NCBI RefSeq assembly: GCF_001677475.2
Contig: NZ_CP015229.1
Length of the DNA stretch: 64,000 nt
Reading direction: 5' to 3' (one strand)
DNA from: Escherichia coli
GTDB taxonomy: Bacteria > Pseudomonadota > Gammaproteobacteria > Enterobacterales > Enterobacteriaceae
The position numbers and the translations under genes were made by a program. The notes beneath the pieces were generated by a model. That model was given only the letters and a program-made list of their open reading frames with translations, ran no database searches and had not been told where the DNA came from. Position 1 is the first letter of the stretch. Each line of letters begins with the position of its first letter. Of this stretch, positions 16,251 to 60,828 are shown one piece after another.

Positions 16251-16819
16251 GTGTGAACCCTCGCGATAATCCTATTTAAATTTTTGCTGAATAGATCACA
16301 GTCACGTTCTGTTTTGTATGAACTGTTTTCAGAGCCTGACTAAATATCCGTTTGGTCGTTACCGGCTTTAGCAAATACCTCACAGTGAATATTGGCTGAT
16401 TAAAGCAGCGGCAAATTTATGCACTGTGATAAGCGGCTTTTTCAGAGAGAATGACTCTCTGGCGATGGGTTTATAGTTTGTACTGCGCAGATGTTAATGT
16501 TTTGTTTGCTTCTATCTTATTGATATTTATTGGTCTATTTTTTTTCTCAGGGCAGATGTCATTAGGTTTATAGATTAATCTGATCTACCCATTTGTGGGT
16601 AAAAATACACATAATGCGGGTGACATAATAGTTAATTAACTTTTGTTAGCGTTTTGAAATTAAAAACACCGTTCATCTGAAGAGATATTAATTTTTAACG
16701 ATGATAGAGGGATAATTATATTTGATCTGGCACAAGTTTTATTGATTAACGATGTAACTTGTGCCAGGGGTATTTTGCATTACGGTAATAATTATTACTT
16801 ACAGATAACCAGCGATCCG

Positions 16820-58242: not shown

Positions 58243-58788
58243 ATGAGTGCCAATGAAAACAACCTGATTTGGATCGATCTTGAGATGACCGGTCTGGATC
58301 CCGAGCGTGATCGCATTATTGAGATTGCCACGCTGGTGACCGATGCCAACCTGAATATTCTGGCAGAAGGGCCGACCATTGCAGTACATCAGTCCGATGA
58401 ACAGCTGGCGCTGATGGATGACTGGAACGTGCGCACCCATACCGCCAGCGGGCTGGTAGAGCGTGTGAAAGCGAGCACGATGGGCGATCGTGAAGCTGAA
58501 CTGGTAACGCTCGAATTCTTAAAACAGTGGGTGCCTGCGGGAAAATCGCCGATTTGCGGTAACAGCATCGGCCAGGATCGTCGCTTCCTGTTTAAATATA
58601 TGCCGGAGCTGGAAGCCTACTTCCACTACCGTTATCTCGATGTCAGCACGCTGAAAGAGCTGGCGCGCCGCTGGAAGCCGGAAATTCTGGATGGTTTTAC
58701 CAAGCAGGGGACGCATCAGGCGATGGATGATATCCGTGAATCGGTGGCGGAGCTGGCTTACTACCGCGAGCATTTTATCAAGCTGTAA
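58243..58788 (+). CDS. orn: Oligoribonuclease Orn, 181 aa
   Basis: ORF 58099..58788 recognised as Orn; the recognised N-terminus [23 protein letters not shown] starts at ATG 58243. Confidence 0.95.
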
Positions 58789-58914
58789 ATTTTTTCCTGG
58801 TCACGTAAGCGCCGTAATCCACTTGCGGTGGCGTGATTTTGACGCTAAATTGAACGTCTTGCCGATAATTTCAGCACTTGAGATAAAAACTCAAAAAAAA
58901 ATTTTTTAGGGGGG

Positions 58915-58942
58915 TTGCAGAGGGAAAGATTTCTCGTATAAT
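58915..58942 (+). promoter_or_regulatory. Putative sigma-70 promoter of the tRNA-Gly operon
   Basis: -35 TTGCAG (58915..58920), 16-bp spacer, -10 TATAAT (58937..58942), followed by a GC-rich discriminator GCGCCTCCC and preceded by an A/T-rich UP-like tract (58882..58908). Confidence 0.6.
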
Positions 58943-58999
58943 GCGCCTCCCGTAACGACGCAGAAATGCGAAAATTACGAAAGCAAAATTAAGTAGTAC

Positions 59000-59075
<76 letters not shown>

Positions 59076-59232
59076 AAATTTGAAAAGTGCTGCAAAGCAC
59101 AGACCACCCAATCGCAGTATTTCGAATTGCGACAAGGCGGCAACTGAACGAATCCTTGGGAGCTTACAAAAGTAAGTGACTAAGGTGAGTGAAGGCAGCC
59201 AAGGCAGTAGCGGTTCGAAAGACGAAGATTAA

Positions 59233-59308
<76 letters not shown>

Positions 59309-59343
59309 AAATTTGAAGGTGCTGTAAAGCACAGACCACCCAA

Positions 59344-59419
<76 letters not shown>

Positions 59420-59429
59420 AATTCTTCTC

Positions 59430-59690
59430 TCAATAAAATATCCACAGCGACGCGATGCGTTATTGCTGGTTTTTGTTGTCTCTGACAAACTCTTGTAAAC
59501 AGAGTTATCCACAGCCTCAGTCCGTAATCTTAATTTCAAAGAAACTTCGCACGGTGAATAGTATTTTTTTAACCTATTGATAGGTAAGTTAAAAATTAAG
59601 ATTCCGTTTTGTCGAGTCGATCACTTGACGATTTTATTCGTCTTGAATTGCAATGCGTTTTTATTTTTATTCACAAGCTGTGGATGAATC
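59430..59690. other. datA: DnaA-box cluster with central IHF site, consistent with the datA DnaA-inactivation/titration locus
   Basis: Four DnaA-box 9-mers: ATATCCACA (59438..59446), consensus TTATCCACA (59505..59513), TTATTCACA (59667..59675) and, inverted, TCATCCACA (59679..59687); an IHF-consensus site lies between them; position between the tRNA-Gly array and the queG 3' end. Confidence 0.65.
59570..59582. promoter_or_regulatory. IHF consensus site within the DnaA-box cluster
   Basis: TAACCTATTGATA is the reverse complement of the IHF consensus WATCAANNNNTTR, with an adjacent upstream T-tract (59563..59570). Confidence 0.5.
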
Positions 59691-60826
59691 AGGCGTCACG
59701 CGGTAACCCTTTTTCAATCACCCGAACCAGACGCTGTTTTTTCGGCAATTGCACTTCGACTATGCACGCATTTCGCCTCTCGATTTGCTGCGCCATCGCC
59801 CACGCTATGTGCTCATCAAGAAGTGGGTGCTCACCTTTGCGACTCTCCAGCGCCGCCAGAATCGTTTCATCCCAGGGGGCATTGCCTAATGCCACGGCGA
59901 TATTACGCAGCCAGCGCAGGTGACCTATACGGCGAATCGCCGATCCTTCCGTGACTTTTAAAAACTTCTCTTCGCTCCAGGCGAATAACTCAATGAGTTC
60001 CGGTGCGTGTAGCGGCTTACGCGGGCTGAAATCGTCTTCTGTAGTGAGTTGCGAATAGCGATTCCACGGGCAGATAAGCTGGCAGTCATCGCAACCGTAA
60101 ATACGGTTTCCCATTAACGGTCGCAACTCTTCCGGGATCGCCCCTTCCAGTTCGATGGTGAGATAAGAGATACAGCGGCGAGCATCGACGGTATATGGCT
60201 CGACGATGGCACCGGTCGGGCAAATCGTCATACAGGCCACGCATTTACCGCATCCTTCCTCGACTGGTTGATCCACGGGCAGCGGAATATCGACCAGCAA
60301 TTCGCCTAAAAAGAAGAACGAACCGGCCTCGCGATTGAGGATAAGTGAGTGCTTACCTGTCCAGCCGAGCCCAGCTTTTTCAGCTAACGGGCGCTCGAGA
60401 ATAGGCGCAGAATCGACAAACGGTCTAAAATTCAGCGAAACACAATGTTGCTGAATCATCTCGCCCAGCTTTTTGAGTCGGTTGCGCAGAAGCTTGTGAT
60501 AGTCACGGCCCAGCGCATAACGGCTAACATAGCCGAGTTTGGGGTTTTTCAGCGTGCTGGCAAATGCGGCGTTAGCAGGAAGGTAATTCATCCGCACGCT
60601 GATCACGCGCAGCGTACCGGGCAATAACTCATGGGGGCGAGCGCGCAGCATACCGTGACGCGCCATCCAGTCCATTTCGCCGTGGTATTGTTTGTCCAGC
60701 CATGCTTGCAGTTTTGGCTCGGACTCGCTGAGATCGGTATCGGTAATACCTACCTGCTGAAAGCCCAGTTCCAGCCCCCACTGTTTAATTTTTTGCGCTA
60801 ACTGATTGAGATCGAGGGGCTCTGAC

Positions 60827-60828
<2 letters not shown>
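59689..60828 (-). CDS. queG: Epoxyqueuosine reductase QueG (YjeS), 379 aa
   Basis: ORF 59689..60936 recognised as QueG (ferredoxin-like Cys clusters CGKCVACMTICP and CDDCQLICPWN); the recognised N-terminus MSEPLDLNQLAQKIKQWG starts at ATG 60828..60826. Confidence 0.88.

Follow-up and report, generated by a model that had tools for sequence, protein, structure and literature searches.

The closest described counterpart of the DNA examined here is the datA locus of Escherichia coli K-12, a non-coding group of DnaA- and IHF-binding sites that inactivates the replication initiator once each initiation has taken place, and an element that is already known in detail. It has been described with five DnaA boxes (PMC4585315), and its minimal form, placed downstream of glyV-X-Y and beside yjeV/queG (PMC10950094; PMC10380432), has a published length of 183 bp containing boxes 7, 2 and 3 together with an IHF-binding site (IBS; PMC5742627). 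In the published K-12 work, box 2 and box 3 are high-affinity and essential (for box 3, see PMC5742627), as is the IBS, and datA function additionally requires a third, low-affinity box, box 7, that is co-oriented with boxes 2 and 3 (PMC5742627). Box 4 has a stimulatory effect in vitro but is non-essential in vivo (PMC5742627; PMC10380432), and box 1 is dispensable for DDAH (PMC10950094). Transcriptional read-through from the glyVXY promoter crosses the locus (PMC10950094). DDAH contributes a modest share of total DnaA-ATP hydrolysis (PMC5835720), and cells without all extrinsic regulators are reported to be capable of nearly normal behaviour (PMC11331064).

Herein we analysed a 64-kb stretch of E. 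coli DNA (hereafter “the window”, with positions counted from its first letter), in which a sequence-only reading had singled out positions 59430-59690 as a datA-like DnaA-inactivation locus. We found that this segment is almost certainly datA itself, on an Escherichia coli chromosome, given an identity of 358/361 to K-12 and matches to the published IBS and primers. A megablast search with the surrounding DNA likewise identified the window as E. coli.

Results

Positions 59400-59760 of the window aligned without gaps to positions 4392639-4392999 of E. coli K-12 MG1655, with 358 of 361 bases identical, and the aligned counterpart of the segment in K-12 is the glyY-queG interval. The gene order orn, glyV, glyX, glyY, yjeV, queG and nnr is shared with K-12 MG1655, and boxes 1, 7, 2, 3 and 4 as well as the IBS all have the sequence, orientation and spacing that they have in K-12. 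The three differences from K-12 (T for G at 59521, C for T at 59523 and G for A at 59584) all fall in spacers, outside the boxes and the IHF 13-mer, the last of them being located 2 bp beyond the IBS 13-mer in its A/T-rich flank. The published MG1655 datA IBS reads TATCAATAGGTTA (Frimodt-Moller 2015, supplementary Fig. S11, PMC4585315), and the IHF 13-mer of the window is letter-identical to it. Mutagenesis primers from the K-12 literature (PMC10950094) could also be placed in the window: the subDnaAbox2_L/R primers replace exactly the TTATCCACA that precedes GCCTCAGGCTG, which corresponds to 59505-59513, the ChdatAsubIBS primer substitutes the TTGATA within the IBS (59577-59582), and the delter primers map to a deletion of about 59437-59462. 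The delter deletion is reported to remove box 1, and TglyV-X-Y to overlap datA box 1 (PMC10950094). Upon alignment to K-12 datA the boxes lie inside the mapped minimal region, and position, homology, boxes, IBS, box 7 and spacing all point to membership of datA. Judging from K-12 synteny near 4.39 Mb, the locus would be origin-proximal, about 10 min from oriC. Of 5426 complete E. coli genomes, 5425 carry the 261-bp segment, each as a single copy and at 95-99% identity, and none has the exact datA allele of this strain, the best match reaching 99.2%.

The segment occupies the interval from the third tRNA-Gly(GCC) gene, whose last base is 59419, to the queG stop codon (59689-59691), and the G+C content of the datA region is 35%. 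On the upstream side, the glyV-glyX-glyY operon (59000-59419, + strand; supported by ARAGORN, Rfam tRNA matches and the K-12 annotation) comprises three tRNA-Gly(GCC) genes (59000-59075, 59233-59308 and 59344-59419, all +). On the downstream side, queG (epoxyqueuosine reductase; 59689-60828, - strand) is convergent with glyVXY, and since its stop codon is 2 bp from box 4, datA is situated at the queG 3' end and not at the queG promoter. Both strands of the window were scanned for TTATNCACA with at most one mismatch, and the four DnaA boxes claimed by the sequence-only reading were all recovered where it had placed them, i.e., box 1 (59438-59446, +; ATATCCACA, one mismatch), box 2 (59505-59513, +; TTATCCACA, perfect), box 3 (59667-59675, +; TTATTCACA, perfect) and box 4 (59679-59687, -; TCATCCACA, one mismatch), the last being inverted and 3 bp from box 3. 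Boxes 2 and 3, which lie 162 bp apart, are the two perfect matches of the whole 64-kb window, where 2.5 would be expected. The perfect IHF consensus reported between the boxes was likewise confirmed, on the minus strand (59570-59582; TATCAATAGGTTA, perfect to WATCAANNNNTTR). It is the single IHF-binding site located between boxes 2 and 3, at a spacing of 56 bp from box 2 and 84 bp from box 3. Within 59000-60000 no other match has one mismatch or fewer, and the 64 kb contains five perfect matches in all, this one included. A further DnaA box with one mismatch is found in queG (60336-60344, -; TTATCCTCA) and may correspond to box 5 in the original datA fragment of ~1 kb.

Missing from the earlier list of sites was the essential low-affinity box 7. 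The sole 9-mer with at most two mismatches to TTATNCACA adjacent to box 2 is TTGTAAACA (59493-59501, +, two mismatches; 4392732-4392740 in K-12), which lies 3 bp upstream of box 2 and is co-oriented with boxes 2 and 3, and from the published reviews and the conservation described below we infer that it corresponds to box 7. This box and box 3 together span 183 bp from end to end, which would place minimal datA at 59493-59675 (+). The stretch from the start of box 2 to the end of box 4 (59505-59687) likewise measures 183 bp, and thus the match in length cannot by itself fix the boundaries of the minimal region.

The segment had been described as non-coding, which is the case from the tRNA-Gly end at 59419 to the queG stop. 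Boxes 3 and 4 are contained in yjeV, an annotated but uncharacterised 17-codon ORF (59653-59706, +; MRFYFYSQAVDESGVTR; K-12 annotation b4670 and translation). The statement that no neighbouring gene explains the density of boxes needs an adjustment, since the neighbours are not irrelevant: besides boxes 3 and 4 in yjeV, box 1 overlaps the glyVXY terminator/attenuator (59442-59478, +), a G+C-rich hairpin (59442-59469) followed by TTTTTGTTG. RNA folding of 59420-59485 gave -14.3 kcal/mol (z = -2.3), with box 1 within the 5' arm of the hairpin and a T-run after it. A scan for terminator-like structures returned a second hairpin with a T-rich tail on the + strand, 3' of the IBS (59609-59641, of which 59609-59631 form the hairpin), which may be terminator-like for transcripts that extend beyond the IHF site. 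Its stem is GTCGAGT/ACTTGAC and its loop CGATC, and it is followed by GATTTTATTCGTCTT. The one GATC in the datA locus (59619) is inside this hairpin.

Further upstream, the glyV-glyX spacer carries a 121-bp insertion relative to K-12 (59111-59231), so that the spacer measures 157 bp here vs 36 bp in K-12. The core of the insertion is an imperfect palindrome, GGAGCTTACAAAAGTAAGTGACT, a putative ERIC/IRU-like sequence. The insertion is inside the transcription unit whose read-through reaches datA. Of the 5426 complete E. coli genomes, 1608 carry it at this site, and diverged copies occupy a median of 9 places per genome. A sigma-70 consensus scan of 58780-59760 found no promoter, and the published PglyV-X-Y and PyjeV were not picked up by it; a TATAAT with a G+C-rich discriminator is visible by eye at 58937-58942. 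An Rfam scan of 58700-59800 returned the three tRNAs and a sub-threshold match to YrlA (Y RNA-like; 59258-59396, 40 bits vs a gathering score of 69). The latter spans glyX-glyY and is most likely an artefact of the tandem tRNA structures.

The density of the boxes was compared with several backgrounds. With four boxes (at most one mismatch) in 260 bp, the segment is the unique maximum of the 64 kb. When the 260 bp itself was dinucleotide-shuffled, the proportion of trials with at least four boxes was 0.04%, and that with two perfect boxes 0.02%. Over the whole window the count is marginal, since 11 of 200 shuffled windows included at least one stretch of 260 bp in which four boxes had no more than one mismatch each, and a test of the quality of the constellation was therefore used in its place. 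Among 1000 whole-window dinucleotide shuffles, two perfect boxes inside 260 bp occurred in eight; two perfect boxes with at least four boxes in total in 260 bp occurred in none of the 1000, and neither did a perfect IHF site between a perfect box pair. The quality of the cluster is unmatched by chance and the constellation test is decisive, which bears out the earlier proposal that the density stands out from background. Elsewhere in the window, a 35% G+C intergenic region (16417-16604) contains five one-mismatch matches to the looser TTWTNCACA within 190 bp. No perfect TTWTNCACA match and no IHF consensus was found in this region, and its box-like words are most likely a compositional effect.

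Conservation was assessed with a pattern scan over one genome per species (GTDB representatives), in which box 2, 41-71 nt, the IBS consensus, 69-99 nt and box 3 had to follow one another. The scan returned at least 120 loci, a count from which, as the pattern is anchored on the sites, the fraction of species possessing datA is not derivable. At least 62 loci, all Enterobacterales and one per species, have spacings of 55-58 and 82-86 nt. The genera among the matches listed are Escherichia, Salmonella, Citrobacter, Klebsiella, Enterobacter, Cedecea, Buttiauxella, Dryocola, Serratia, Rahnella, Rouxiella, Chimaeribacter, Pantoea, Erwinia, Mixta, Tatumella, Edwardsiella, Morganella, Providencia, Photorhabdus and Xenorhabdus. 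The scan demanded box 2 exactly, plus the IBS consensus and box 3, which means that conservation of these three sites is given by construction, and the independent evidence consists of the spacing, the synteny, box 7, box 4 and the spacers. Among the Enterobacterales matches listed, the position of box 7 has at most two mismatches in 46 of 62 loci and at most three in all 62, compared with 1.8% of random 9-mers from the same spacers with at most two mismatches; it ends in ACA in 62/62, followed by GAG or GAC in 58/62. Box 4 is recognisable (at most two mismatches) in just 29 of the 62 Enterobacterales loci among the matches listed, and box 1 has no fixed register across them, a poor conservation that parallels the published dispensability of these two boxes. 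Otherwise, the spacers have diverged beyond recognition between families among the matches listed.

With respect to synteny, a queG homologue on the opposite strand starts 17-53 bp past box 3 in 59 of the 62 Enterobacterales loci among the matches listed. tRNA-Gly(GCC) genes are found 86-700 bp upstream among the matches listed where the flank suffices, except in Photorhabdus and Xenorhabdus, in which, among the matches listed, tRNA-Gly is more than 1.2 kb off or absent within 1.5 kb and datA is still beside queG. From these gene neighbourhoods, the linkage of datA to the tRNA-Gly operon is looser than its linkage to queG. At the Photorhabdus thracensis locus (L010, 8700-9900), the tRNA-Gly operon is ~1.2 kb from datA vs ~90 bp, and L105 and other Photorhabdus/Xenorhabdus loci are similar; the intervening DNA of L010 includes a 136-aa ORF whose C-terminal half appears, by eye, Phd/YefM-type antitoxin-like.

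Fixed spacings were also seen outside Enterobacterales. Among the matches listed, seven Sutterella/Parasutterella loci have a spacing of 59/86 followed by another direct TTATCCACA, or of 71/86 when a second perfect box, situated 12 bp further upstream, is taken as the starting point, whilst three Moraxella loci have 69/94, two Neisseria loci 61/97 and 68/97, and two Methylococcaceae loci 71/86. The non-Enterobacterales matches are probably origins or other DnaA-box/IHF clusters of those lineages.

Discussion

The mechanism that we propose for this locus is transferred from published K-12 experiments (PMC5742627; PMC10380432; PMC5835720; PMC10950094), and DnaA binding, IHF binding and DDAH by this allele are predictions carried over from them. 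As in K-12, ATP-DnaA would assemble head-to-tail on the co-oriented boxes 7, 2 and 3, and IHF at the central site, for which HU would be no substitute, would put a sharp bend in the long interval between boxes 2 and 3, allowing the DnaA sub-complexes to meet as one head-to-tail oligomer. Within this oligomer, hydrolysis of DnaA-bound ATP would depend on the arginine finger Arg285 and sensor 2 Arg334, and also Arg281 and Leu290. ADP-DnaA would then dissociate from datA, by virtue of which the locus would act catalytically. IHF is expected on its site only after initiation: before initiation, read-through from the tRNA-Gly promoter would lower IHF occupancy, while bound IHF would in turn block that transcription, and a further factor has been postulated to time the release of IHF from datA (PMC10950094). 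Being near oriC, datA would be duplicated early and would back up RIDA against untimely re-initiation, and it would also, to a lesser extent, titrate some DnaA directly. The sequence-only reading had assigned the segment to replication control and not to gene expression. The first half of this assignment holds, whilst the second is slightly too strong, because tRNA-Gly read-through and binding at box 2 and the IBS have been reported to affect each other.

How far this catalytic role should be preferred depends on how other explanations fare. In its original, historical interpretation datA was mainly a passive titration sink, which binds many DnaA molecules and doubles its capacity upon early duplication, catalytic hydrolysis not being the relevant activity. 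Two perfect and two near-perfect boxes inside 250 bp suit such a sink, and direct titration is documented by deletions outside boxes 1-4 that reduced it and by box 2 or IBS point mutants in which it was reduced and not abolished (PMC5835720). However, a point mutation in any one of the IBS, box 2 and box 7 reproduces the full deletion phenotype, and the apparently very high titration is largely accounted for by DDAH (PMC5835720); for K-12 it is also reported that scrambling the spacing or inverting box 3, with all boxes retained, abolishes function (PMC4585315; PMC5742627). Among the matches listed, moreover, the box-IBS-box spacing is held within 3-4 bp and the co-oriented weak box 7 is kept, which is easier to reconcile with an oligomer under geometric constraint than with a sink. 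The titration model is partly true, and as the main account of the locus we regard it as unlikely. A role primarily in transcription, with the sites acting as a roadblock or attenuator of tRNA-Gly read-through or as a regulator of yjeV/queG and with replication secondary, could draw on the overlap of box 1 with the terminator hairpin, the second hairpin 3' of the IBS, the position of boxes 3 and 4 inside yjeV, and the published evidence that read-through transcription is lowered by IHF bound to the IBS and by DnaA bound to box 2 (PMC10950094). Against this, datA is located at the 3' ends of two convergent units, away from the queG promoter, and no gene further downstream is known to rely on the read-through. 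The phenotypes published for mutants of the sites are in the initiation of replication (PMC5742627; PMC5835720), and the entomopathogenic Photorhabdus and Xenorhabdus among the matches listed keep the architecture beside queG with tRNA-Gly over 1.2 kb distant or missing from the flank. A primarily transcriptional function is thus very improbable.

The two remaining alternatives concern the nature of the cluster itself. In favour of a cryptic origin, or of an element of the DARS type by which DnaA is reactivated via nucleotide exchange, oriC and DARS2 are likewise DnaA-box clusters with an IHF site (PMC5742627; PMC10380432), and boxes 3 and 4 do form an inverted pair 3 bp apart. DARS1 and DARS2, however, map at 17.5 and 64 min (PMC4585315), the sequence here is that of datA, and the published K-12 biochemistry at datA is ATP hydrolysis (PMC5742627), all of which makes this reading highly improbable. 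An oriC-type origin was rejected, as a search of 59300-59800 for a DUE-like 13-mer (GATCTNTTNTTTT, at most two mismatches) found none and the locus has one GATC (59619) and no GATC cluster. That DnaA-box-like and IHF-like words simply built up by chance in an A+T-rich intergenic region is suggested by the 35% G+C, by the 11 of 200 shuffled windows that reach the same box count, and by the five looser matches at 16417-16604. Yet none of 1000 shuffles yielded two perfect boxes with two more, or a perfect IHF site between a perfect pair, the spacing is conserved while the spacers diverge (Enterobacterales among the matches listed), and the segment is near-identical (358/361) to a characterised locus, so that we give chance practically no credence.

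On the reading of the segment as datA, the region between the IBS and box 3 includes several short blocks outside the named datA sites, and those at 59643-59666 of the window are conserved across families. Among the matches listed, 49 of 62 Enterobacterales have a TTGA at ~24 bp on the upstream side of box 3, often as TTGA-N5-CAA (59643-59653 in the window); a T-run, TTTTTATTT, abuts box 3 and is invariant among the Enterobacterales matches listed; and 16 of the 62 Enterobacterales loci among the matches listed have a GATCAC in the stretch from the IBS to box 3. These unnamed blocks and the variable linkage to tRNA-Gly bear on the question of what times IHF release. Since datA of Photorhabdus and Xenorhabdus stays at the queG 3' end with tRNA-Gly more than 1.2 kb away, tRNA read-through may not be a general timing mechanism. 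We consider it speculative and unlikely that the TTGA(N5)CAA block, the T-run and, in E. coli, the 59609-59641 hairpin are a binding site or RNA element of the factor postulated to time IHF release (PMC10950094).

Our results add nothing new on the element itself, and the modest additions are the conservation of its architecture, spacing and weak box 7 beside the queG 3' end in at least 62 Enterobacterales species, the non-conservation of boxes 1 and 4 and the looser linkage to tRNA-Gly. In the RefSeq record of K-12 (NC_000913.3, 4392659-4392927), only the 17-codon yjeV and queG are annotated over the element and there is no datA feature, which implies that automated annotation would not flag the locus. 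The recognition of datA from raw sequence indicates that non-coding replication-control elements omitted by standard annotation can be picked out.

Compared with other known systems, the most distant are the clusters of Bacillus subtilis and Streptomyces coelicolor, origin-proximal DnaA boxes that repress untimely initiation (PMC4585315; PMC5742627). They are described as analogous and not homologous to datA, and those descriptions include no IHF site or DDAH activity. DARS2 and DARS1 resemble datA in that they are clusters of DnaA boxes in non-coding chromosomal DNA and influence which nucleotide DnaA carries, and DARS2, like datA, needs timed IHF binding (PMC5742627; PMC10380432). They differ in their opposite outcome (ADP release and ATP reloading), their three-box core I-III, the requirement for Fis, their map positions and their unrelated sequence. 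The left DnaA-oligomerisation region of oriC (R1 - IBS - R5M ...) likewise combines an IHF site with one high-affinity box and with weaker, co-oriented boxes, and, like datA, supports an Arg285-dependent head-to-tail ATP-DnaA oligomer (PMC5742627), whereas oriC has a flanking DUE, many GATC sites and no stimulation of ATP hydrolysis. The longer box-to-box interval across the IBS in datA than in oriC has been linked to its strict dependence on IHF, for which HU cannot substitute (PMC5742627). Finally, datA of K-12 is the same locus, with the flanking genes orn, glyVXY, yjeV, queG and nnr shared, from which the allele described here differs by three spacer SNPs and by the 121-bp repeat element in the glyV-glyX spacer that is absent from K-12.
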